DNA from: an uncultured bacterium
GTDB lineage: Bacteria > Zhuqueibacterota > QNDG01 > CAYUAG01
Reading direction: 5' to 3'
DNA length: 64,000 nucleotides
Assembly: GCA_964442615.1 (NCBI GenBank)
Contig: CAYUAG010000001.1
Coordinates: forward strand, 464 to 64,463
The position numbers and the translations under genes are program-made. The notes below the pieces were generated by a model that ran no database searches, was not told the origin of the DNA, and saw only the letters and a list, made by a program, of their open reading frames with translations. Below, piece after piece: positions 1-54,791 of the stretch (position 1 is its first letter; each line of letters opens with the position of its first letter).

Positions 1-2235
1 TACAGGCCATGCTATCAAATTGGCAAGAATAATCCATCGGATTAGTGTGCCGGATAATAATAAGGTCACGCTGCCTGTGGAAGCACCCATAACCTTGCGT
101 ATACCAATCTCCTTTGTTTTGACTTCAGCCATAAATGCCGCCAATCCCAGAATACCCAAAGAAGCGACAAATATGGAGAGCGCTGAGAATATTATAAAGA
201 TGTTCTGCATCTTCCTTTCCCGCTCATAAAGTTGTTGAATGCGTTCATCGAGGAAATTAAATTCAAATTGCTCACCGGGAAATGTGTTCTCCTAGGTGTT
301 CCGGAGGTACGTTAGGGATTCCCGGATATCGCCTGGTTTGACTCGAACTGATATCGTGTTAATCCATTCAAAATTTAATATCAAAGCCATAGGTTCCACT
401 ATCGTATGCATGGACTTGAGGTGAAAATTTTTTACCACACCCACGACCCGGCCTATGTCGCCCCTGCCATACACCAGTTCCTTTCCGACTGCTTCATCGG
501 GTGTCCAGCCAATACGACGTACTGCTGCTTCATTCAATATAAGTGTCCCGGAGGTATCAGAACTGAAATTTCTGGAAAAGGTGCGTCCCTTTTGCATCTC
601 CATCCGGTATGTCTCAACAAAATCGTGATCCGCACCGAGAATAAGCATGCTGATGGTTTCTTCGGAATTCAGTCGAGTCTGAAAACCAGTCGTGCTGAAA
701 AAAGTTTCCCCTGGTACATCTGAAGATCTGGCAACCGAAAGAACCTGTGGATTCTTTAATAATTCAGTACGATAGACTTCATAATTCTGAGCCATTTCTC
801 GGCTTTGAACAGAGACCAGTACAATATTTTCTTTTTCAAAACCTAAAGACCGGTTCTGGATGTATTGCATTTGTCTGTACACTGTAAACATCCCGATAAT
901 TAACGCAATAGAAATGCCGAATTGAATAATCACCATGTTTCTTTTGAAGCCTGATCTTCCTTTACCCGAAACAGGAGTGCCTCGTAAAATATCTGCTGGT
1001 TCGTATCGCGTTAATTGAAAAGCGGGATAGATACCAGCAAGAAAACCAACGATAAGCGTTGTCACGATTAAAATGCAGATATTTTTTATTTGAAACAGAT
1101 AAGAGAGTGATAGACTCTCATGAAAGATTCGTTCATAGGCTGGTATCAGCAGTATATCTAAAACAAGGGCTAACAGTAAGGCAAGGAAGGCTAAAAGCAT
1201 GGATTCCTGAATGAACTGTCCCCTGAGCTGCATGAGCCCCGCACCCACGGTTTTACGCAGACTGACTTCCCTGGCCCGTTTGCTGGACCTGGCTGTTGAG
1301 AGATTCACAAAATTAATGCAGGCGATTATAAGGATGAGTAAAGCAACCGAAGAGAATATATAAACAGATGCTATGTTTCCTCCTGCCTCAATCTCCCAAT
1401 TTTCACTGGGATTAAGATGAATACTGGTAATAGGGAAAAGATTCATCTTCAGCACTTCATGAATACCGAATCCCTGGGCCAATAGATCCCCGTAATGGGC
1501 TTCAAGATGACGAGTGACAAATGTTTTTAATTTACTCTCAAGGCTTGATCTCGAAGTGCCTTTCTGAGCCAGGACATAGGTGTATAGATAGTTACTTCTC
1601 CAACTGGTAAACCTGTCTTCCGGATAGGAAGAAATTGACATCAGCATATCGAAATGGATATGGGAGTTTTCCGGCACCTCTTTCAGAATGCCTGTCACTT
1701 TAAAATCCACTGGTTCTCCATTGAATTCAAGATTGAGGGATTTACCAATAACATTTTCGGTACCCAAAAATTTTAATGCCTTCTCTCGCGTGAGCACCAC
1801 TGTTTTCGGTTCGGTTAGTGCTGTCTGTTCATCACCCTCCTCCAGATCGAAATCGAAAATGTCGAAGATGGCGTTATCCACTGCAAAAAGTTCCTGTCGA
1901 TGATTGAAATTATTTTGATCCTTGATGTTTGTTACTCTTCGCCATACGCGTGTTGCATTTTCAATTTCAGAATAATCATCAATTAATGCCTGTTTGTATT
2001 GTCCACCAACGATAGGCCAACGGCTGTAAACATTATCACGGAACAGTTCCCGTTCAATGCGATAAATCCGTTGAGCATTATTATGGAAGCGGTCATAACT
2101 GGATTCTCTCTGTACCCAGAGACTGATGATGGTACAAATGGCCAGCCCGATAGCCAGACCGAAAAGATTTATGAAAGAAAATAATTTGTTTCTGACGAAA
2201 TGACGATAGGCAATTTTTAAATAATTTTTAAACAT
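1..2235 (-). pseudogene. MacB/FtsX-family ABC transporter permease, interrupted by an in-frame TAG (292..294); the C-terminal end runs off the left edge
   Basis: The 647-aa ORF 292..2235 has the N-terminal TM, MacB-type periplasmic domain and first FtsX TM bundle. It is paralogous to ORF 2751..5144 (both start MFKNYLKIA.R). Hand translation of the minus strand below 292 continues in the same frame: ENTFPGEQFEFNFLDERIQQLYE...KTKEIGIRKVMGAS...IRWIILANLIAWPV. This aligns to the C-terminal FtsX domain of the paralog. Confidence 0.75.
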
Positions 2236-2278
2236 GATTTCTCTCCTTAGAGCGTTCAGATTTCAGCATTCAGCTTCC

Positions 2279-2345
2279 GTGAAACGTCAAATGTGAAAAG
2301 TATAGGGGGTATGGGCTGTTTGACTTCTCACATTTGACATCTCAC
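2279..2345 (-). repeat. Intercistronic hairpin (GTGARA/GTCAAA word family), copy B
   Basis: Arm 2279..2300 (gtgaaacgtcaaatgtgaaaag) pairs with arm 2324..2345 (cttctcacatttgacatctcac). That gives 19 Watson-Crick pairs. The 3 remaining positions are A.C/C.A on the plus strand but U.G/G.U on the minus (mRNA) strand. The loop is 23 nt. Confidence 0.8.
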
Positions 2346-2384
2346 TTTTTCAATCTCCATTGTTCATTGATCACAGAACAATGA

Positions 2385-2663
2385 TCATTGTTGATTAACT
2401 GCCATTACCGTTTTTTTACGAAACATGATGGGAATATTGGTGTCGGAAGGGGCTCCGATATTGATGAGCTCCCAGTTTTTATCATATTCTCTTATCACTC
2501 GTCTGAGAATATCAACTCTTTCTTCTGTATCTGGCTCTTTACTCTCCCATTCTACAATCTCAACCCGGTATTTCAAGGTTCTTTTTTTTCCATTAATCTT
2601 TACATCAATTTCGATATTTTGTTTGGCTTCAAGACTGGGAATTTGGAGAACAACTTCTCGCAT
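2385..2663 (-). CDS. Hypothetical small protein (92 aa), family not recognised
   Basis: ORF with a strong SD: the minus strand reads AAGGAGGctaacATG. It lies between two hairpin repeats, between the two permease genes. Confidence 0.55.
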   Translation of the reverse strand: MREVVLQIPSLEAKQNIEIDVKINGKKRTLKYRVEIVEWESKEPDTEERVDILRRVIREYDKNWELINIGAPSDTNIPIMFRKKTVMAVNQQ

Positions 2664-2692
2664 GTTAGCCTCCTTTTTATATTTTTAGTGAT

Positions 2693-2747
2693 CAGCCTTC
2701 AGTAGTCAGTAGTCAGCTTACTCAACCCCTCTGAATGCTGACGGCTG
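2693..2747 (-). repeat. Intercistronic imperfect hairpin (TCAGC/TCAGT word flavour)
   Basis: cagccttcagtagtcagtagtcag (2693..2716) pairs with ctgaatgctgacggctg (2731..2747). About 14 of 17 positions pair, and the word tagtcag is duplicated in one arm. Confidence 0.5.
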
Positions 2748-2750
2748 TTT

Positions 2751-5144
2751 TCATTCATACCTCAAACTCTCCACTGGATTGGCCCGGGCGGCTTTAAACG
2801 CTTGATACCAAACGGTCAGTAGAGCAACACACAAAGCGATAAGACCGGAAAGCAGAAAACTCACCACACCAATGTTGACCTGGTAGGCATAAGAGATCAG
2901 TACTTGTTTCATTAGAAAGTAGCCAAGCGGCCAGGCAATAAGGTTAGCAATCAGTACCCAGCGTATAAATTCCTGACTGAGAAGTAAAATTAGCTTTGAT
3001 ACAGGTGCGCCTAATACTTTCCGAACACCTATTTCCTTGGTTCTTCGCTCTATCATGAAAGATGACAGTCCGAAAAGTCCCAGGCAGGATATGACAATAG
3101 CCAACAGTGTAAAGGTGTTAAAAATCTGGCTGGCCTTCACTTCTTTGGCATACAGCTGGTCGTAGGTTTCATCCACAAAGTGAAACTCAAAAGGCGAAAT
3201 GGGATTAACGGATTTCCACACGTTTCTAACAGCAGCGATACCCTTAGTGATTTTTCCGGATTGTATTCTAATCAGCACGATTCCGCCACTGGTGGCATGG
3301 GACATGTCTGTTATAAAAAAGATCCTGTTATTGATTTTTTGATGGAGTGATTGAAAATTGGCATCCTTAGCTATCCCAATGATTTTCGTAAGGCGGTCAT
3401 CGGAAAGTTTAAACCATTTCCCCAGGGGTGATTCCAGTCCCATGTCCCGGATTGCTGATTGGTTCAGGATCACACTCTCTCTGGCATCCGAGGATATCTC
3501 TTCTGAGAAAGTTCGACCCTCTACAATATCGAGTCCAAGTGTCTTGAAAAAATCATACCCCACACCTGAAAGTACTAGATCGAGATGACGCTCCCGTTTT
3601 GGATCTCTGCCTTCCCATTCCCAGCCCGCTCCTCTCCAGGTATCTGTTAAACCCATGTATTGGGCAGATACAGAAACGATCTCAGGATGGGTGAGCAGTT
3701 CATTTTTCATGGTTTTGTATTGAGTGCCCACATTCTCCTTAATAGGCAGATAAATGACATTTTTTTTGTTGAATCCCAGGTTTTGGTTTTGAATATAATG
3801 AAATTGTTTATAGATGATCAAGGTTCCGAAAATGAGTAGGATGGATATAGCGAATTGAAAAACAACCAATATTTTCCGGAATAGAGATCCACGCTTATCG
3901 GATAATTGAGAGCCCCGAAATAAAACCAGAGGCTTAAATCCCGAGAGAAAAAAAGCGGGATAACATCCTGAGAGAAGTCCAGTTATAATAATTATAACTG
4001 CAAAACCTGTCAGAAAAGAAATATCGAGAGGATTTATTCTGAGTGATTTATCAGCCAGTTGATTGAAATAGGGGAGCAAAACCATGACCAGACCTAAAGC
4101 AATCAAACCGGCAATGAGTGTGAAAACCATTGATTCAGCAAAAAATTGCCGTACCAATTGAATACGATGGGCTCCTATAGTTTTTCTCATGCCAATTTCT
4201 TTTGATCGGAGAGCGGATCGGGCCGTAGACAGATTCATGAAATTTACACACGCAATGGCCAATACAAAACCGGCAATCACAGAGAACAGTAATACCATCT
4301 TTCGGTCACCTAAAATGCGCCATTGGATATTCCAATCCCGGGCAGTTAAATACACGTCCGACAGCGGTTGAAGCCAAAATGTAAGCCCCTTGGATATCTG
4401 CCAGCACTCATTACGTTTGCCGATTTCGGTCATTTTTTTTCCAAGTAATTGAAGGTCGCTGTTCTCCCAGAGGAGCACATAAGTGGTAAAGTTGAAAGCA
4501 TTCCAGGAGGTACCATAATTATAGGTCCATTCACCCATGTCCTCCATGAATGTAAAGGAACTCACAAAGTCAAATTGCAGGTGTGAATTTCTGGGGATAT
4601 CCTGAATCACACCGGTTATGGTAACCGGACGTCCCTCAACCAGTATTGTCTTACCCATGGGATCTTCATTTCCAAAATATTTACACCCAAAGGATTCCGT
4701 GATGACCATATCCGCAGGATTCTGAAAGGCTGATTCCAAATCACCTTTGATGAAGGGAAAAGTGAAAATCTCAAACAGGGATGGATCGGCCATAATGCCT
4801 TTTTCTTCATAAAAACGGGTATCCTTATATTTAAATACTAGTCGTGCATGGGAGGCAACCCGAGCCGCATGGACAATTTCAGGGAGTTCTTTTTGCATTG
4901 CGGGAGCCAGCGGTGCCGGGGTGATTTCCAGACCCTCCCATCCATTCCTCTTCCAGTCGCTCACCACGCGATAGATGTGATCTTTTTTTTCATGGAATTG
5001 ATCAAAGCTAAGTTCGTCTTGAACCCAGATTAGGATAAAGATACAGACAGCTATTCCTACTCCCAAACCCAGGATATTGATAAAGGAATAGCCTTTGTGC
5101 CGCAGGAGGTTTCTTAAAGCAATTTTCAGATAATTTTTGAACAT
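2751..5144 (-). CDS. MacB/FtsX-family ABC transporter permease (797 aa)
   Basis: Full-length ORF with N-terminal TM, a large periplasmic domain and two FtsX-type TM bundles. It has the RTKEIGVRKVLGA and earlier SKEIGMRKTIGA motifs typical of MacB-like permeases. Confidence 0.9.
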   Translation of the reverse strand: MFKNYLKIALRNLLRHKGYSFINILGLGVGIAVCIFILIWVQDELSFDQFHEKKDHIYRVVSDWKRNGWEGLEITPAPLAPAMQKELPEIVHAARVASHARLVFKYKDTRFYEEKGIMADPSLFEIFTFPFIKGDLESAFQNPADMVITESFGCKYFGNEDPMGKTILVEGRPVTITGVIQDIPRNSHLQFDFVSSFTFMEDMGEWTYNYGTSWNAFNFTTYVLLWENSDLQLLGKKMTEIGKRNECWQISKGLTFWLQPLSDVYLTARDWNIQWRILGDRKMVLLFSVIAGFVLAIACVNFMNLSTARSALRSKEIGMRKTIGAHRIQLVRQFFAESMVFTLIAGLIALGLVMVLLPYFNQLADKSLRINPLDISFLTGFAVIIIITGLLSGCYPAFFLSGFKPLVLFRGSQLSDKRGSLFRKILVVFQFAISILLIFGTLIIYKQFHYIQNQNLGFNKKNVIYLPIKENVGTQYKTMKNELLTHPEIVSVSAQYMGLTDTWRGAGWEWEGRDPKRERHLDLVLSGVGYDFFKTLGLDIVEGRTFSEEISSDARESVILNQSAIRDMGLESPLGKWFKLSDDRLTKIIGIAKDANFQSLHQKINNRIFFITDMSHATSGGIVLIRIQSGKITKGIAAVRNVWKSVNPISPFEFHFVDETYDQLYAKEVKASQIFNTFTLLAIVISCLGLFGLSSFMIERRTKEIGVRKVLGAPVSKLILLLSQEFIRWVLIANLIAWPLGYFLMKQVLISYAYQVNIGVVSFLLSGLIALCVALLTVWYQAFKAARANPVESLRYE

Positions 5145-5198
5145 ATTTTTTCCCTCATTAGCTCTCAGCTTTCAGCATTTAGCGGGCAGCTTTATTTA

Positions 5199-5273
5199 GT
5201 GAAATGTCAAACGTGAGACGTGAGAAGGATGGTAGCAGATGGGTCGTTTGACTTCTCACTTTTCACATTTCAT
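5199..5273 (-). repeat. Intercistronic hairpin (GTGARA/GTCAAA word family), copy A
   Basis: Arms 5199..5227 and 5245..5273 pair at about 22 of 29 positions in one register. Alternative perfect 8-bp registers exist (gtcaaacg/cgtttgac and gtgagaag/cttctcac). The core atgggtcgtttgacttctcac (5239..5259) is nearly identical to 2311..2331. Confidence 0.7.
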
Positions 5274-5279
5274 CATTGA

Positions 5280-5951
5280 TCATTCCTCCTTCTCAATCCA
5301 CCCATCCTTCAAATGGATAATCCGGTTTCCATATTTTGCTTTTTCCTCGGAATGGGTAACCTGGAGGATGGTCATGCCTTCCTCTTTGTTTAATTTTTTT
5401 AAAAGCTCCATAATTTCTTTTCCCTGCTGGGAGTTAAGATTCCCGGTAGGCTCATCCGCCAGTAAAAGGTTTGGCCGGATAATCAAGGCCCGGGCTACAG
5501 CAGTCAACTGCTGCTGACCTCCAGAGAGCTGATTAGGGAAGAGATTTTTTTTAGCAACAATATTGAATCGGTCCAGCACCTCTGCTACCAATCCTTTTCT
5601 TTCCGAAGTTTTAACTTTTTTATATAACAGAGGAGTCTCCAGATTTTCATATACGGTCATCTCATCAATAAGATGGTACTGCTGAAAAATGAATCCTATA
5701 TGCTGATGATGAAGACCGGTTCGCTGTTTTTCTTTTAAGGAATGGACAGGCTCATCAAAAAAATAGTATTCACCTTCTGAGGCAGTATCCAGCATACCCA
5801 GAATATATAAAAGTGTTGATTTTCCTGCACCTGACGGACCCATTATAGTGATAAACTCACCTTCCTTAATATCCAGATTGATTTGTCGTAAAACAAAGGT
5901 TTTAATAAATTTATTAGAATAATATTTGGTAATATCTCTTAATTTAATCAT
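5280..5951 (-). CDS. ABC transporter ATP-binding protein (MacB/LolD-like)
   Basis: Walker A GPSGAGKST, signature LSGGQQQ, Walker [14 protein letters not shown]-loop VTHS. Confidence 0.95.
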   Translation of the reverse strand: MIKLRDITKYYSNKFIKTFVLRQINLDIKEGEFITIMGPSGAGKSTLLYILGMLDTASEGEYYFFDEPVHSLKEKQRTGLHHQHIGFIFQQYHLIDEMTVYENLETPLLYKKVKTSERKGLVAEVLDRFNIVAKKNLFPNQLSGGQQQLTAVARALIIRPNLLLADEPTGNLNSQQGKEIMELLKKLNKEEGMTILQVTHSEEKAKYGNRIIHLKDGWIEKEE

Positions 5952-5966
5952 CTTTTACCTCAATTT

Positions 5967-6185
5967 TTATTTTTTTGATGTTACTTTAAATAAAACAGCT
6001 CCCAGATATCCAGATTCGTTTATTTCAGCTATGTATAAACCAGGTTGATAGTGAGCTTTTGTTTTTAATTTTGTTTCTGATAGAGTATTTAATAGACTTG
6101 CAGGTGTAAAAGAACCCTCAGTACTGCTTAACAGTAATCTTTGATGGTTTTTTACAAGTCCGGTTAATACATTTTTTAAGGTCAT
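5967..6185 (-). CDS. Hypothetical small protein (72 aa)
   Basis: ORF preceded on the minus strand by AAAGGAGaaatcaccATG. It ends 15 nt before the next ATPase gene. No family recognised. Confidence 0.4.
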   Translation of the reverse strand: MTLKNVLTGLVKNHQRLLLSSTEGSFTPASLLNTLSETKLKTKAHYQPGLYIAEINESGYLGAVLFKVTSKK

Positions 6186-6251
6186 GGTGATTTCTCCTTT
6201 ATGGTCGGGTGATTACATTGTTTTACAAATTTTAATTTTTTTTTGACCTTT

Positions 6252-6370
6252 AATGTCATAAGTGAAATGTGAGATGTGAGAAGTGAGAGATTTGCACTTC
6301 CCATTCAACTGAACTGGATCTTCTTGGATTTACTTTTTTTACATTTCATGTCTGACATTTCACTTCTCAC
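6252..6370 (-). repeat. Intercistronic hairpin (GTGARA word family), copy C
   Basis: aagtgaaatgtgagatgtgagaagtgagag (left arm) pairs with acatttcatgtctgacatttcacttctcac (right arm). There is an 11-bp perfect block plus about 10 of 15 further positions. The loop is about 50 nt. Confidence 0.6.
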
Positions 6371-7060
6371 TTATACATGAAATTTATCTTTGAAATTCTC
6401 AGTTACAATATGCCCATCAAAAAGATGAATCAATCTTTGGGCATAATCTGCATAGGCTGGTGAGTGGGTTACCATAAGAATCGTAGTTCCTTCTTTATGA
6501 AGATCAGTTACCAATTTCATAACTTCTTCTCCATGGGAGGAATCCAGGTTTCCGGTCGGTTCATCAGCAAGTATAAGTTTGGGGTCGCTGACAATTGCTC
6601 TGCTTACCGCTACCCGTTGCTGCTGTCCCCCGGAGAGCTGCTGAGGAAAGTGGCTTCTTCGGTGCATCATTTTCATTCTTTCTAGGACATTATGTACTTT
6701 TTTCTTTCTTTCTGAAGCTGAAACTCCAAGATAGAGAAGAGGAAGTTCAACATTTTCATACACAGTGAGTTCATCGATGAGGTTAAAACTCTGGAATACA
6801 AATCCGATGTTGTTTTTCCTCAGATTGGCCCGTTTTCTCTCATTATATCCGGATATTTCCTCTCCCAGAAAATGGTATTCCCCTTCTGTCGGATTGTCCA
6901 GCATTCCCAACACATTCAGAAGTGTGGATTTGCCGCATCCCGAGGGTCCCATAATGGATACAAATTCGCCCTCTTTGATCTCAAGATTCACATTATTCAA
7001 AGCAGTTGTTTCTACTTCTTCAGTCAGGTATACTTTTTTTAAGTTTTTGGTTTTAATCAT
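6371..7060 (-). CDS. ABC transporter ATP-binding protein (MacB/LolD-like), paralog of 5280..5951
   Basis: Walker [10 protein letters not shown], signature LSGGQQQR, Walker [13 protein letters not shown]-loop VTHS. Confidence 0.95.
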
Positions 7061-7132
7061 TTTGTGATCCTTTCATTTATTATTAATTTTATATGATTTA
7101 TATTGTGAAACGTCAAAAGTTATAAGTCAAAA

Positions 7133-7611
7133 GTCAAATGTCAAACGTGAGAAAAAACCGTAACACCTCATTATATAGTACTTTTTATTAGTTTTGAAAG
7201 TGAAGCAAAAAGATGATTCATTTGTTTACTAATTTTATCTAAATCTTCCTGTCTACAATAGGTTAAATCAAGTGCAATTTCTAATTGTGTATCCAGTTCC
7301 GCTAATGATGATCTTGAAATTTCATAAAACCTTCTCCGTTCATTGCTGGAACTTCTTGCTGAGCCCTCTGCGATATTCGAAGGAATGGAAACAGCGCTTC
7401 TCCTGATTTGTGAAATTAAATTGTACATTTCTTTTGTTGGAAATTTTTCAGTTAATTCATATATTTTTATGACAAACTCCATTGCTAACTTCCAAACCTT
7501 TAATTTTTTATGTTTTAATTCGAGCATCTCATCTCCTGTAAAAACATTTTTCTGTTTTTGTTTATATACTTGCTGTCTTTTACCACTCACTTCTCACATC
7601 TCACATTTGAC
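7133..7611 (-). repeat. Inverted-repeat stem (arms 7133..7157 and 7587..7611) enclosing the four-helix-bundle ORF
   Basis: Hand alignment of gtcaaatgtcaaacgtgagaaaaaa against the reverse complement of 7587..7611 (gtcaaatgtgagatgtgagaagtga) covers 25 positions. There are 19 Watson-Crick pairs and 2 mismatches. The other 4 positions are U.G/G.U only on the minus strand. Confidence 0.6.
7171..7527 (-). CDS. Four-helix-bundle protein (23S rRNA intervening-sequence protein / Avd-like family)
   Basis: The motif KFPTKEMYNLISQIRRSAVSIPSNIAEGSARSSSNERRRFYEISRSSLAELDTQLEIA is characteristic of this family. The start is placed at MLELKHKKLKVW (7527), which has AGGAGAtgagATG upstream. The track's longer ORF (to 7590) would read through the repeat arm. 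Confidence 0.8.
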   Translation of the reverse strand: MLELKHKKLKVWKLAMEFVIKIYELTEKFPTKEMYNLISQIRRSAVSIPSNIAEGSARSSSNERRRFYEISRSSLAELDTQLEIALDLTYCRQEDLDKISKQMNHLFASLSKLIKSTI

Positions 7612-7614
7612 CTT

Positions 7615-8865
7615 TTACTTCAAAATCAACTTATCAACATCCCCGAAAGTGTCATAAGAAGAGGTGATAACTTTATCACCAGGTTTCAGTCCTTCCAAAA
7701 CAGTAAATACTTCCGGGTTTTTCCGCCCTAGCCGGAGGGGATGTTTTACAGCAAATGATTCTGATTCATCCAGAATGTATACCCATTGACCTCCTGTAGT
7801 TTGGTAAAATCCCCCTTGAGGAAGAAGAATTGCTTCTTCTAGATTCCCAAGTTCAAGTCGAATATGTAAAGTTTGACCTCTGCGAATTCCTTCAGCTAAT
7901 TCGTTTAGAAAAACCAGATCAACATCAAAGCGTCCTTCGCTGACTTCTGGAAAAACCTTGTTAACTTTAAGCTTATATGTGTTTCCTGCAAAGGAAAAAC
8001 TTCCGTATTTCCCTTCTTCCACTCTGGCAATGTAGTGCTCATCAATCTCACACCTGACTTTTAAACTGTCAAGTACATCAATACGACCCAGTGATTCTCC
8101 GCGACTTTTGGTAGAGCCAATCTCAGCATCCAGAGATGTAAGCATGCCGTCAATAGGAGTTCGAATGGTTAAAGCTTCCTCTCTTTTTTGAACAATGGTC
8201 AAATTCTTTTCCATTTGTGCAACAGATAATTCCAGCTGTTTTATTTGATTTTCTCTAAACAAGGAGTCCTGTTGCATAGATTCAAGAGTAAGTTCCTTAG
8301 ATTTCAGGGAATATTCATACTCATCTTTTATTAATTCATATTCTTCTTTGGATATAAGATTTTGTTCATAAAGCTTTTGTGCTCTTTTGTATTCTCTTTC
8401 TTGTTTTAGGAGATTAAATTTAATTTCTATGAGTTGTCTTTTAAGCAGTAATTTATTTTGTTCCATATAAAGACGAGTGGAACGTAAATCATTAGCAGCC
8501 CTGTTCACCTGGGCTTGATTGTTTAATATGGTCAGAAGTAGATTTGTATTGGACATTCTTACAATGGGATCACCTTTTTTCACCGATGTACCTGCTTCGA
8601 TAATTCTTTCTTCCACTACACCTCCTTCCGTGGCGCTCAGAGTATATCTTTTAATAGGAACAACTGTACCCTGAGTTGGAATATATTCCTGGAATTCGCC
8701 TTTATAAACGGTTGATATAGTAATTCTTTCAGTATTTATATTATATTTAGAACTTTTATCTCCAAATATAATCATATAGAGAATCAAGAGAAAAAATGCG
8801 GAGGGTATGACGACCTTTGCTATGTTTTTTAAGGTAAACCGTTTTTTTTCAATTTTTTTATCCAT
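7615..8865 (-). CDS. HlyD-family periplasmic adaptor (membrane fusion protein) of the ABC efflux system
   Basis: N-terminal TM anchor, long coiled-coil segment (QLELSVAQMEKNL...), then barrel-sandwich and beta-barrel regions. It is the first gene of the operon with the ABC ATPases and MacB-like permeases. Confidence 0.85.
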   Translation of the reverse strand: MDKKIEKKRFTLKNIAKVVIPSAFFLLILYMIIFGDKSSKYNINTERITISTVYKGEFQEYIPTQGTVVPIKRYTLSATEGGVVEERIIEAGTSVKKGDPIVRMSNTNLLLTILNNQAQVNRAANDLRSTRLYMEQNKLLLKRQLIEIKFNLLKQEREYKRAQKLYEQNLISKEEYELIKDEYEYSLKSKELTLESMQQDSLFRENQIKQLELSVAQMEKNLTIVQKREEALTIRTPIDGMLTSLDAEIGSTKSRGESLGRIDVLDSLKVRCEIDEHYIARVEEGKYGSFSFAGNTYKLKVNKVFPEVSEGRFDVDLVFLNELAEGIRRGQTLHIRLELGNLEEAILLPQGGFYQTTGGQWVYILDESESFAVKHPLRLGRKNPEVFTVLEGLKPGDKVITSSYDTFGDVDKLILK

Positions 8866-8918
8866 TCATTTCTCCCATAAAAATTGTGAACTTATAATTA
8901 TTTTCTCACTCTTTATTA

Positions 8919-8934
8919 CGCAAGAAGCATACCA
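8919..8934 (-). promoter_or_regulatory. Candidate sigma-54 (-24/-12) promoter of the efflux operon
   Basis: The minus strand reads TGGTATGCTTCTTGCG. GG and GC have the canonical TGGCAC-N5-TTGC spacing. It lies about 55-70 nt upstream of the HlyD start codon and faces away from a sigma-54 activator gene. Confidence 0.6.
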
Positions 8935-8970
8935 TTATTGTTTTTATTGAATTTATCGTTATATGCTAAA

Positions 8971-9026
8971 CACCAACTTTAATAATGTGTGCGCTGACAT
9001 TACAGTTGGTGTACGTATTCGTACAC
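8971..9026. promoter_or_regulatory. Palindromic sites, candidate enhancer (UAS) for the sigma-54 activator
   Basis: caccaact (8971..8978) and agttggtg (9004..9011) form a perfect 8-bp inverted repeat. gtgtacg-tatt-cgtacac (9009..9026) is a perfect 7-bp inverted repeat. Both lie about 40-110 nt upstream of the -24/-12 element. Confidence 0.4.
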
Positions 9027-9178
9027 TTTAATAAGGTTGAAGTAACTTTATGACTTAGTTTTCAGAGGAACATAGTATTGCAGAATTATCGGTACAATGA
9101 TTGCTATAAAGTAGTTGAATTTGTTGATTACAGAGTGTATCTTTTAATATAGTTTCATAAAAAATGGATAACTAGTTA

Positions 9179-10555
9179 ATGAGTGAAAAGATTGGTAAAA
9201 TTCTTTTTATCGATGATAATGAGGATATACTGCAGGCTGCTCGGCTCTTTTTAAGACAGCATATGGCTGTTGTCCATACTGAGAAGAATCCAGAAATGAT
9301 TCCTTCCCTACTTAAACATGAGGATTATGATGTCATATTACTGGACATGAATTTTACTCAGGATGTTACCAGCGGTAAAGAGGGTTTTCTGTGGCTGGAG
9401 AAGATACTTGAAATTGATCCCTGGGCAGTTGTTGTTATGATAACAGCCTATGGAGATGTTGAGATGGCTGTACGTGCCATTAAAGCTGGAGCAATAGATT
9501 TTGTCTTGAAACCTTGGCACAATGAAAAGCTGCTTGCAACTATCTCAGCAGCTGTGAAATTAAGGCATTCCCGTACCGAACTTGATAGTCTACGTTCTCT
9601 TCAAAAACAATTGAGCGCAGACATGGATCAACCTTTCCATGATTTCATTGGCCAAAGTCCAGCTATGGAAGATGTATTTAAAACCATAAGAAAAGTAGCA
9701 AAAACAGATGCCAATGTTCTTATTCTGGGAGAAAATGGAACTGGCAAGGAGTTGGTTGCCAGGGCACTCCACCGGGAATCAAAACGGTGTAATAAAGTAT
9801 TTATCAGTGTGGATATGGGAGCTATTAGTGAAACTTTGTTTGAAAGTGAACTATTTGGTCATGTAAAGGGTGCTTTTACTGATGCCAAGTCAGATAGGGC
9901 TGGTCGTTTTGAAGTAGCCTCTGGGGGCACTCTTTTTCTTGATGAAATTGGAAATCTATCCAAGACTCTTCAAAGTAAACTTCTTACTGTATTGGAAAAC
10001 AGAAAAGTAATACGGTTGGGTTCACATAAACCAATTTCAATTGATATACGTCTTGTTTGTGCTACTAATAAATCCATTAGTGAAATGGTTACCAGGCAGG
10101 AGTTCAGACAGGATTTGCTGTATCGGATAAATACAGTGGAAATAAATCTACCCCCACTTCGTCACCGGAGAGAGGATATTCTACTGCTTGCAGAACATTT
10201 TTTAAAGATTTACTGCGAAAAGTATGATATGCTACCCAAAAAAATAAATAGTGAGACAAGAAGAAAAATGGAACAATATAAATGGCCTGGAAATGTAAGG
10301 GAACTGCAGCATGCTATTGAAAGAGCAGTTATAATGAGTGAGAATAAGACCTTGAAACCCTCTGATATCCTGCTTTCTATACCCAACAGTAAGAGTGAGG
10401 AATTATCTCTGGATAACTTAAAAATTGAAGAGATTGAGAAATTAGCTATTCAAAGATCGATTAAAAAATACAAAGGCAACATTTCAAGAGCTGCCAAGGA
10501 ATTAGGATTGACCAGGATTTCTCTCTATCGTAGACTGGAGAAATATGGAATATAA
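9179..10555 (+). CDS. Sigma-54-dependent response regulator (NtrC family: REC, AAA+, Fis-type HTH)
   Basis: REC domain (DDNEDIL...LLDMNF), Walker A GENGTGKE, GAFTDA (a GAFTGA variant), ESELFGH, and C-terminal HTH ISRAAKELGLTRISLYRRLEKYGI. Confidence 0.95.
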   Translation: MSEKIGKILFIDDNEDILQAARLFLRQHMAVVHTEKNPEMIPSLLKHEDYDVILLDMNFTQDVTSGKEGFLWLEKILEIDPWAVVVMITAYGDVEMAVRAIKAGAIDFVLKPWHNEKLLATISAAVKLRHSRTELDSLRSLQKQLSADMDQPFHDFIGQSPAMEDVFKTIRKVAKTDANVLILGENGTGKELVARALHRESKRCNKVFISVDMGAISETLFESELFGHVKGAFTDAKSDRAGRFEVASGGTLFLDEIGNLSKTLQSKLLTVLENRKVIRLGSHKPISIDIRLVCATNKSISEMVTRQEFRQDLLYRINTVEINLPPLRHRREDILLLAEHFLKIYCEKYDMLPKKINSETRRKMEQYKWPGNVRELQHAIERAVIMSENKTLKPSDILLSIPNSKSEELSLDNLKIEEIEKLAIQRSIKKYKGNISRAAKELGLTRISLYRRLEKYGI

Positions 10556-53559: not shown

Positions 53560-53740
53560 GAGAATTAATTGCTACTGAGGGTCAATGTGACTTTGTTGAT
53601 AGAAGTTAGAGAATTTTTAACTATAACTAGTAGATAACTTTATTTTTTATATCTCTGAATCTAACTTCTAACTTCTAACTTCTAACTTCTAACTTCTAAC
53701 CTCTAACCTCCAATAACTTAGCAGCAATAATTCATTAATA
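53560..53740 (+). repeat. Second long imperfect hairpin; its 3' arm contains the heptamer array
   Basis: gaattaattgctactgag pairs with cttagcagcaataattc, and gatagaagttagaga pairs with the ctaacttct words. Confidence 0.5.
53661..53709 (+). repeat. Tandem heptamer repeat (CTAACTT x5, CTAACCT x2)
   Basis: Read directly from the sequence: 7 contiguous 7-nt units. Confidence 0.95.
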
Positions 53741-53761: not shown

Positions 53762-54791
53762 ATGAGTATTGCAAGTAGAAAATCTGATCATATTAAAATA
53801 TGCTTGAATGAAGAAGTACAATTTAAAAATAAAACCACTGGATTTGAAGAGTATGATTTTATTCACTGTGCTCTGCCGGAAATGGAATTAAAGGATATTG
53901 ATACTGAAATAGAAATCTTCGGAAGAATTCTCTCATTTCCATTTTTTATAGGGGCTATCACCGGGGGATGGGAGGGTGCATTTGAAATAAACAAATCCCT
54001 TGCTCAGGTGTGTAAAAGAGAGGGAATCGGTTTAGAGGGTGGAAGCCAGAGAAGTATACTTGAAAATGAGAGATATATTGATTCCTACAGAATAATACGA
54101 AAAGAAGCTCCTCATTCATTAGTGATTGGCAATATTGGAGCTGTTCAGACAGTTCAATACCAGAATATTGATGAATTAAAGAGACTTGTAGATGTTATTC
54201 AAGCTGATGCACTCACTGTTTATCTCAATCCTTTACAGGAAGTATTACAATCGTCAAAAGAAGTTAATTTTAAAGGTGTTTTAGAGGGAATTGAAAGACT
54301 GGTGCGTTCTTTAGAAGTTCCCTTGATAGTTAAAGAAGTTGGATCTGGTATATCCACCCAGGTTGCACAAAAACTTGCAGATGTGGGAGTAAAGTATATC
54401 AATATTGCAGGTGCAGGAGGAACATCTTGGGCTGGAGTAGAATCATTTAGGAACAGAAGTGATTTGGCAGAGAGGTTTTGGGATTGGGGAATACCCACGG
54501 CAAAAAGTATTACCATGGTAAAAAAGGTTAAGGTCGTTAACATTATTGCTTCAGGAGGAGTAGCAAATGGACTTGATATGGCAAAAGCATTAGCTCTTGG
54601 TTCCAGAGTGCGGTAGTTCTGCTTTACCCATACTAAAGATATTACATAAAAAGGATAATATGGGAGTTATAAAGATAATTAGACAGTGGAGAAAAGAATT
54701 AAAAATTGCCATGCTTTTAACTGGGAGTAGTAATGTAAATGAGATTATGCGTAAAGGAGTTTTGGAATATATTGGTAATAGATGTGTCTAA
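53762..54791 (+). pseudogene. fni: Type 2 isopentenyl-diphosphate delta-isomerase (IDI-2), frameshifted near 54605
   Basis: ORF 53762..54616 matches IDI-2 through ...IIASGGVANGLDMAKALALGS. The expected continuation ECGSSALPILKIL...WRKELKIAMLLTGSSNVNEI is in the +1 frame (ORF 54597..54791). Removing one nucleotide around 54605 restores a colinear protein. Confidence 0.8.

Follow-up and report, generated by a model that had tools for sequence, protein, structure and literature searches.

A four-helix-bundle gene in the loop of a heptamer-repeat stem within an export operon: a probable counterpart of rRNA intervening sequences in an mRNA spacer

Four-helix-bundle genes of the family PF05635 are found in intervening sequences (IVS) of 23S rRNA. 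In the window (the whole 64-kb stretch of DNA analysed here), a gene of this family lies in a spacer of a protein-coding operon, bracketed by inverted arrays of tandem heptamers, and arrays of the same build flank family members in many phyla. We consider it probable that the region from ~7104 to 7621 is an IVS-type, and probably mobile, cassette in the operon's mRNA spacer, which by analogy with the rRNA elements would be processed by RNase III.

Results

A four-helix-bundle gene between an adaptor gene and an ABC ATPase gene

The export operon is encoded on the minus strand and consists, in order of transcription, of a HlyD/RND-type adaptor gene, a 118-aa ORF, ATPase 1, a 72-aa ORF, ATPase 2, permease 1, a 92-aa ORF and permease 2 (Table 1). 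This layout bears out the earlier note on this DNA, which had placed the 118-aa gene between the HlyD gene and the first ABC ATPase gene. The genes around the 118-aa ORF are of transporter and two-component types only. A location of the cassette in an rRNA helix is ruled out by the adaptor and ABC ATPase flanks and by the lack of an Rfam match in positions 1-10000, where a scan at E ≤ 1 returned only two chance matches, both to eukaryotic families. When positions 5100-9200 were scanned, no terminator was found within the cassette spacer, and promoter-like sites did not exceed the shuffle expectation.

Table 1. Features of the export operon, the cassette and the gene-less hairpins, listed in the direction of transcription
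Feature	Position	Strand	Basis or remark
HlyD/RND-type periplasmic adaptor gene	7615..8865	(-)	upstream host gene, outside cassette
5' arm of stem	7591..7620	(-)	inverted-repeat search, fold; begins at HlyD stop codon (7615-7617)
Shine-Dalgarno-like AGGAG	7533..7537	(-)	5 nt upstream of ATG 7527; read from sequence
Four-helix-bundle gene, 118 aa, ATG start (PF05635 / TIGR02436)	7171..7527	(-)	profile matches
3' arm of stem	7124..7153	(-)	inverted-repeat search, fold
MacB/LolD-type ABC ATPase 1 gene	6371..7060	(-)	downstream host gene, outside cassette
Hairpin H3, gene-less	6253..6378	(-)	spacer after ATPase 1; overlaps ATPase stop codon; loop ~53 nt
72-aa ORF	5967..6185	(-)	between ATPase 1 and ATPase 2
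ABC ATPase 2 gene	5280..5951	(-)	
Hairpin H2, gene-less	5203..5277	(-)	spacer between ATPase 2 and permease 1
ADOP-type permease 1 gene	2751..5144	(-)	
92-aa ORF	2385..2663	(-)	between permease 1 and permease 2
Hairpin H1, gene-less	2279..2345	(-)	spacer before permease 2
Permease 2 gene	292..2235	(-)	

Profile searches confirmed the family that had been proposed for the 118-aa protein. Both PF05635 (E 4.5e-38; 130.2 bits, cut-off 33.8) and TIGR02436 (E 2.3e-36; 124.3 bits, cut-off 24) match above their cut-offs, and residues 7-111 align to positions 1-105 of the 106 in the PF05635 profile. The pentameric four-helix-bundle protein XCC0516 (PDB 2GSC) is matched over residues 5-115 (E 3.9e-30), which points to kinship between the two proteins. 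A motif of the form GxxRxxxSxxxNxxE has been given for the family (PMC3936711). The 118-aa protein, which reads QIRRSAVSIPSNIAEG, contains RxxxSxxxNxxEG; R43, S47, N51, E54 and G55 are invariant in a 25-sequence alignment, and the leading glycine of the motif is Q in this subgroup. Its nearest relatives come from Balneolaceae, Fodinibius, Ignavibacteria and similar metagenome bins.

The exact 118-aa protein has no database record; the public gene call is a 139-aa form that starts at GTG 7590, inside the 5' arm. Since homologues are 117-119 aa long and AGGAG lies 5 nt before ATG 7527, the 118-aa start is the better one, and the public call is probably too long, running into the upstream repeat array. 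The stem does not sequester the AGGAG, which falls within the loop. Compared with a syntenic homologue of 81% amino acid identity, dN/dS is 0.15, indicating that the ORF is a functional gene under purifying selection.

The flanking heptamer arrays form the stem

Arms at 7587..7611 and 7133..7157 had been described as pairing through 19 Watson-Crick pairs and 4 G.U pairs with 2 mismatches. We count exactly these, and the register extends to 30 positions. This best register (7591-7620 with 7124-7153) has 25 Watson-Crick pairs, 3 G.U pairs and 2 mismatches, and the duplex energy of the arms is -39.7 kcal/mol. The stem, which is predicted to close a 437-nt loop, was found in both the MFE and the centroid fold of the 536-nt RNA. 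Joined by a short artificial loop, the arms have a folding energy of -36.1 kcal/mol (z = -6.3), which none of 200 shuffles equalled. For the fold of the complete 536-nt RNA, z is only -1.56. The exceptional part is therefore the arms, not the whole region.

The 5' array (~7580-7621) is G-rich and C-poor and is made of the words GTCAAAT, GTGAGAT and GTGAGAA. The 3' array (~7104-7157) is made of the complementary words TCTCACG, TTTGACA and TTTGACT and has more units than the 5' arm. When lags 4 to 12 were scanned for periodicity across the entire window, clusters appeared at lag 7 only; there are five of them, four in the transporter operon and one at 53653-53720.

Arms that are simple repeats, in a region whose overall fold is unexceptional, could be read as chance complementarity of a low-complexity spacer with no biological meaning. 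This reading is already refuted: no shuffle matched the arm duplex, the same architecture is present in other words in a syntenic relative, and the family-wide pattern described below is set against control genes.

Gene-less hairpins fill the other spacers of the operon

Three gene-less hairpins (H1, H2 and H3), built from the same heptamer words, take up the operon's remaining spacers. GTGAGA, GTCAAA, GTGAAA and their complements are common to the cassette arms and all three hairpins, and clusters of these words occur in the 64 kb at these four places only, in agreement with the earlier note, which had assigned the stem and the neighbouring empty hairpins to one family of words. H1 has 23 contiguous pairs (-32.7 kcal/mol, z = -6.9). 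H1-H3 fit the description of STRR-type intergenic heptamer hairpins, and they may be either ORF-less relatives of the cassette or the same repeat system without cargo.

A hairpin in every spacer of the operon also suits the main rival to the cassette reading, namely that the hairpins came first: STRR-type hairpins of the host would set mRNA stability or relative expression, and the four-helix-bundle gene would be a passenger that landed by chance in one of their loops or was captured there. Cargo-free STRR hairpins (hupS/hupL) and GGGAATC arrays near upstream stop codons (PMC2670836; PMC4692102) provide precedents. We regard this account as rather unlikely, for reasons that come from the relatives of the operon and of the gene.

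Arms and gene turn over together at the orthologous spacer

In the closest relative (81% amino acid identity), the gene is at the same place between arms of the same type with differently arranged words, and the fold retains the long-range stem. Four independent assemblies of this lineage have the gene in one orientation. We compared the adaptor-ATPase spacer in 80 more distant operons. Some spacers are tight (~20-60 nt), some hold a gene-less heptamer hairpin (L086, L089, L132, L138, L141, L144), and others hold an intact family member, either in the same orientation (L108, L125, L134, L143, L149) or in the opposite one (L105-L119, L130, L131, L139, L151). No relative but the closest keeps the gene in synteny; distant operons have no gene, gene-less hairpins or unrelated members.

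Two comparisons are informative as to what is exchanged. Between L143 and L127/L128, whose adaptors are 94% identical, everything differs from the adaptor stop codon to ~25 nt before the ATPase start, arms included. Between L108 and L139 (adaptors 82% identical), the gene, its orientation and the arm words differ, and the sequence just upstream of the ATPase gene is conserved. These comparisons indicate that the arms travel with the gene and that the spacer has been hit repeatedly. They also bear on the view that the hairpins came first. Gene-less heptamer hairpins at the same place in relatives' orthologous spacers are in its favor, but arms that change along with the gene between close relatives are not what a passenger gene in a resident hairpin would predict.

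Array copy number varies between loci with 98%-identical adaptors. Arrays that grow and shrink like slippage-prone DNA, together with both gene orientations at the same spacer in related operons, would be consistent with an element acting at the DNA level, with the arrays as inversion substrates or as sites of cruciform or ssDNA hairpins and with RNA pairing incidental. However, the plus- and minus-strand genes found in the orthologous spacer differ from each other (59% vs 40% identity to the query) and are not inverted copies, so an invertible segment is rejected. The single orientation in the four assemblies of this lineage and the absence of a recombinase gene nearby also argue against a DNA-level element, as does the fact that the rRNA members of the family are proven RNase III substrates. 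We consider such an element improbable.

Inverted heptamer arrays flank family members in many phyla

To see how far this architecture extends, 80 loci with PF05635-family members were fetched from many phyla, and 75 of the genes were scored by the best pairing of the 150 nt upstream with the 150 nt downstream; 301 other ORFs of the same loci served as controls. Pairing was scored by local alignment; RNAduplex energy, which tolerates large internal loops, proved too permissive. The median score was 37 for family genes and 24 for controls (Mann-Whitney p = 1e-16), and 34 of the 75 family genes (45%) exceeded the control 95th percentile, a threshold that 5% of controls exceed by definition. Three of the top-scoring controls proved to be further family members. 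About half of the family members fall below the threshold, several of them with weak or mis-framed arms on inspection; the figure of 45% is a lower bound, since arms are visible by eye in several low-scoring loci. Similarity between the two flanks was greater in inverted than in direct orientation in 56 loci and the reverse in 13 (p = 5e-8).

Three results concern the earlier note's reading most directly: other family members also have flanking inverted repeats, the gene is not a syntenic fixture of orthologous operons, and the arms fold in a thermodynamic model. All three support it.

Nearly everywhere, the arms consist of tandem heptamers whose words vary by lineage (GGCGGCG, AGATGCC, GTACCAA, ATAGAGA, GTATTGA, AGTGGTT, CGTGAAA and others). 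Seven is the only enriched period, present in 33 of 154 family flanks, compared to at most 6 at any other lag. No word is conserved among 36 consensus units, giving no universal heptamer consensus. GTGA occurs in 7 of the 36, compared to ~6% of random heptamers, in loci that are not independent of one another. Stop codons are not enriched in the consensus heptamers (44%, with 44% expected), and no correlation was found between the words of the arms and the similarity of the proteins (Mantel p = 0.30).

The geometry is also regular. The median distance is 49 nt from the arm to the start codon and 11 nt from the stop codon to the arm, with 36 pairs; the cassette of the window, at 52 nt, 7 nt and 37 pairs, is typical in this respect. 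Of 71 family genes, 55 (77%) are flanked on both sides by genes on their own strand, i.e. they lie inside operons. In 11 of 35 loci, compared to 1.6 expected, the 6-mers of the arms recur in additional arrays at other places in the 6-kb locus, so the same-word empty hairpins of the window generalise. Together with the words shared within the operon, this supports the earlier suggestion of a single element that has empty and ORF-bearing versions.

The upstream arm has more G than C in 33 of 35 loci. Only two antisense cases are informative (L005 and L039), and in both the polarity of the arms follows the ORF. As most cassettes run in the same direction as their hosts, polarity could in principle be set by the host transcript instead. 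Polarity weighs against both alternatives: a symmetric DNA structure leaves it unexplained, and a G-rich arm upstream of the ORF, in both clear antisense cases as well, is not expected if the gene is a passenger in a host hairpin. The conserved arm-ORF geometry and the presence of arms in 45% of the family, against the 5% of controls set by definition, are further difficulties for the latter. In its favor, heptamer arrays are also enriched around control genes, specifically with period 7 (18 of 364 flanks).

One result favors the DNA level. No RNA wobble signature was detected, as non-Watson-Crick arm positions on the sense strand are G.U in 56 cases and A.C in 85. Without an excess of G.U over A.C, complementarity looks maintained at the DNA level and not by RNA-level selection alone.

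In Xanthomonadales loci, the space between accB and accC is occupied by a family member with adjoining GGGAAT-type repeats. These repeats are on both sides in one locus (L042) and upstream only in two (L067 and L029), and they may be among the convergent pairs counted in an earlier survey (PMC4692102).

GxxExxY genes are a second cargo

One high-scoring control encodes a GxxExxY protein (TIGR04256, E 6e-46), of a family unrelated to the four-helix bundle, yet it has the same kind of stem. This gene lies between histidine kinase and response regulator genes and is bracketed by CGCAGAG-type heptamer arrays. Related GxxExxY genes lie between cyanophycinase and cyanophycin synthetase genes and between two methyltransferase genes, and the cassettes have the same termini, ACCGCAGAG...CTCTGCGGT, in all three host contexts. 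A 50%-identical GxxExxY gene on a viral contig has different heptamer arms. Of the loci added to the first, one came from the viral-contig scan and the others from exact look-ups, and the independent contexts are few. Of the evidence gathered here, this recurrence of one cassette in three contexts speaks most strongly for dispersal as a unit, and we take it as a hint of such dispersal. Identical termini in different hosts are also difficult to reconcile with hairpins that preceded their cargo.

Discussion

Relationship to 23S rRNA intervening sequences

The closest parallel to the cassette is the ORF-bearing 23S IVS of Leptospira, Coxiella burnetii and others. In the C. burnetii IVS, inverted repeats at the ends pair into a 28-bp stem, two or three tandem GACAGAT heptamers (the number varies between strains) lie upstream of the S23p ORF, and RNase III cuts at the first heptamer repeat (PMC4990558). 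The excised RNA is rapidly degraded and S23p protein is probably not made (PMC4990558), so excision need not serve expression of the ORF. The rRNA elements and the cassette share the protein family (PF05635, S23p), an ORF in the loop of a long stem made of terminal inverted repeats, a 5' stem portion containing tandem heptamers whose copy number varies between strains, and an element that is co-oriented with, and dependent on, the host transcript. The ORF-in-a-stem layout that the earlier note had likened to rRNA IVS is thus borne out, including heptamers in the stem of the Coxiella element (PMC4990558). Since a conserved-23S-motif search placed none of the fetched loci inside 23S rRNA, the side-by-side comparison rests on the Coxiella paper.

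The two differ in several respects. The site here is an intercistronic mRNA spacer and not an rRNA helix, so cleavage would split the operon transcript instead of fragmenting 23S rRNA. RNase III excision has been demonstrated for the rRNA elements and is only expected here. The Coxiella ORF seems to be decaying and untranslated, whereas purifying selection acts on the ORF described here, and its loop contains a good ribosome-binding site. PF05635 genes have also been reported from cas loci and, in CPR bacteria, from insertions in rRNA.

Relationship to other repeats and stems

Heptamer repeats without cargo have been described several times. Cyanobacterial STRR are hairpins of 7-bp repeats between cistrons, for example hupS and hupL (PMC2670836); convergent inverted GGGAATC arrays lie near upstream stop codons in Xanthomonas (PMC4692102); and TAACTGA arrays are known from Beggiatoaceae, cyanobacteria and Bacteroidetes (PMC4679880). 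All were described as repeats of unknown function. As in the cassettes, 7-bp units are arranged in tandem, often as convergent pairs able to form stem-loops, and STRR-type repeats lie between co-oriented genes, near the upstream stop codon, and change length quickly. Unlike those repeats, for which the reports mention neither cargo nor a link to four-helix-bundle or GxxExxY genes, the arrays described here bracket a gene. STRR proper are further distinguished by a cyanobacterial host and named consensus units; the words here are GTGAGAN and GTCAAAN.

The four-helix-bundle fold is distantly related to that of Avd, the accessory protein of diversity-generating retroelements (DGRs). Matches to Avd profiles are weak and below cut-off (NF033474, E 1e-5, 25.7 bits vs 80; PF22296, E 5e-4, 20.9 bits vs 40), and neither a reverse transcriptase nor template/variable repeats were found near the 118-aa gene. 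On these grounds a DGR component is ruled out.

MITEs and REP/BIME palindromes are also short intergenic inverted repeats that recur in operon spacers, and some are ORF-less derivatives of a gene-bearing parent. The arms of the cassette differ in being heptamer-periodic and lineage-specific in sequence, not dispersed near-identical copies, and neither a target-site duplication nor a partner transposase was found in the 64-kb window.

Intercistronic stems processed by RNase III are known from T7 early mRNAs, rnc-era and rpsO-pnp. Like these, the cassette places a long duplex between cistrons, and cleavage would be expected to uncouple the upstream and downstream messages. The known cases are local hairpins with small loops, whereas the loop here is a whole gene, 437 nt.

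How the cassette may work

The cassette as we read it consists, in order, of a G-rich heptamer array, a leader of ~50 nt with a ribosome-binding site, the four-helix-bundle ORF, ~10 nt and the complementary array. With no terminator and no better-than-chance promoter signal, it would be transcribed with the operon. The arrays would then pair in the transcript to give a duplex of ~30 bp, with the whole ORF in the loop. A duplex of this predicted length would be a textbook RNase III substrate, and RNase III is expected to cut it by analogy with the rRNA elements. Cleavage would set the loop with its ORF free, and the adaptor and ATPase cistrons would end up on separate fragments, both still translatable, which could explain how an insertion inside an essential transcription unit is tolerated.

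At operon spacers, the arms and gene would be gained, replaced and lost together. Inspection of the cassette borders revealed no evident target-site duplication, and no transposase, integrase or recombinase gene was found in the cassette neighborhood in the 64-kb window. The case for mobility is therefore made from comparative patterns. Any role of the protein in the element would likewise be putative. As to the functional tie between protein and stem that the earlier note considered, arm words do not follow protein similarity, and genes of the unrelated GxxExxY family are held in stems of the same kind.

Implications

In the literature covered, mostly outside subscription journals, we found no report that connects inverted heptamer arrays with GxxExxY genes or with family members outside rRNA. 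We read the element as one of the rRNA-IVS type that occupies a protein-coding operon, and the family-wide regularity that accompanies it appears to be undescribed.

A broader model is possible, though we hold it only tentatively. A single class of hairpin cassette, spread across bacteria, may carry PF05635 and GxxExxY (PF13366) genes as its cargo; it would colonise transcribed spacers, in rRNA helices and in operons alike, and would make or maintain its own arrays. The intergenic heptamer excess (STRR, GGGAATC and gene-less hairpins) would then be, to a considerable extent, the footprint of this class or its ORF-less derivatives. A pentameric nucleic-acid-binding ring and a PD-(D/E)XK nuclease would act as mobility or maintenance factors, without a recognised transposase.

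The architecture ties together three separate puzzles: the purpose of the IVS ORF, the four-helix-bundle and GxxExxY genes found in many copies scattered through operons of many phyla, and the intergenic heptamer excess. It also explains start codons annotated too far upstream, inside an arm, of which the public 139-aa call is an example. For the genes themselves it offers a testable model, in which a gene in the loop of an RNase III-cleavable stem is able to reside within essential transcription units. The cassettes would, if cleavage is confirmed, be widespread, unannotated processing sites of operon mRNAs and a new kind of small selfish element.

Heptamer arrays and cassettes in other lineages

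Inverted heptamer cassettes like that of the window also hold GxxExxY genes (TIGR04256 / PF13366). GxxExxY cassettes with identical termini, ACCGCAGAG...CTCTGCGGT, are found at a kinase/regulator pair, in the spacer between cyanophycinase and cyanophycin synthetase, and between methyltransferase genes, which are three different host contexts.

Four-helix-bundle genes are likewise accompanied by arrays elsewhere. At a deltaproteobacterial locus (L048), CGTGAAG-type heptamer arrays form inverted pairs that enclose the four-helix-bundle gene, a response-regulator gene and a large sensor gene. Since these arrays bracket three genes, arrays of one word family can occupy several spacers per locus. 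In Xanthomonas, Luteimonas and Pseudoxanthomonas (L067, L029 and L042), the accB-accC interval holds a four-helix-bundle gene, and the crystallised XCC0516 may be that same gene. GGGAAT-type heptamer repeats lie on both sides of this gene in L042, and only upstream of it in L067 and L029. The repeats resemble the quadruplex-forming SSRs described in Xanthomonas (PMC4692102).

Coordinates of arrays, cassettes, spacer inserts and small ORFs (positions within the window or within each fetched locus)
Feature	Sequence	Position	Strand	Details
GxxExxY cassette	L044	1146-1547		
GxxExxY cassettes	L166, L172, L177	~1201-1620		
GxxExxY cassettes	L176, L165			
CGTGAAG-type arrays	L048	~200-650 and 3350-5900		inverted pairs
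Adaptor-ATPase spacer insert	L142	3833-4537		234-aa secreted-looking protein
Adaptor-ATPase spacer insert	L111	3745-4546		500-800 nt range, as L129; short ORFs only
Adaptor-ATPase spacer insert	L129	2201-2671		500-800 nt range, as L111; short ORFs only
72-aa ORF	window	5967-6185	minus	strong ribosome-binding site AAAGGAG
92-aa ORF	window	2385-2663	minus	strong ribosome-binding site
Second heptamer word family	window	~2255-2290, 5150-5195, 2699-2730	minus	GCTGAAT, GCTGAAA, GCTGAGA; CTGACTA
(TCTAACT) x 6.9 array	window	within 53603-53720		97% identity; spacer upstream of gene starting at 53762

Further arrays and small ORFs in the window

A second heptamer word family adjoins H1 and H2, two of the gene-less hairpins of the transporter operon, and also lies upstream of the 92-aa ORF. 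This family is similar to the AGCTGNN arrays around antisense four-helix-bundle genes in marine relatives (L105-L119, L130, L139 and L151). Together with the second-family array, H1 and H2 have the appearance of paralogues that may have been duplicated with the pair of permease genes. Outside the transporter operon, the window has a single period-7 array, (TCTAACT), with a short complementary partner, AGAAGTTAGAGA, ~45 nt upstream.

The 72-aa ORF comes immediately after the gene-less hairpin H3 and immediately before ATPase 2. It had no match in Pfam or NCBIfam, and none of 80 orthologous operons encodes a homologue; it could be either a further small inserted gene or a non-gene. The 92-aa ORF is also without a family match; counterparts with 30-37% identity adjoin the permease gene in several orthologous operons (L087, L088, L110, L124 and L133), and it looks like an uncharacterised small component of such ABC export operons.

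Start codon of the four-helix-bundle gene

In the public record (P0001), the window's four-helix-bundle protein has 139 aa and begins at GTG 7590, within the 5' arm, and so includes an extra region (7528-7590). ATG 7527 is the start better supported by homologues and by the ribosome-binding site. Calling starts within the flanking arrays may be a systematic, family-wide annotation error.

The adaptor-ATPase spacer as an insertion site

Three orthologous operons carry other inserts in the spacer between the adaptor and ATPase genes, one with a secreted-looking protein and two with short ORFs only. This spacer is a general insertion hot spot. A motif, AAGAC...CTTACAAA...TTTTTAA, precedes the ATPase start by ~60-90 nt in L105-L139, and is kept in these marine relatives irrespective of the spacer insert. 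This motif may act as an internal promoter or as a signal for translation, which would free the downstream genes from the cassette.
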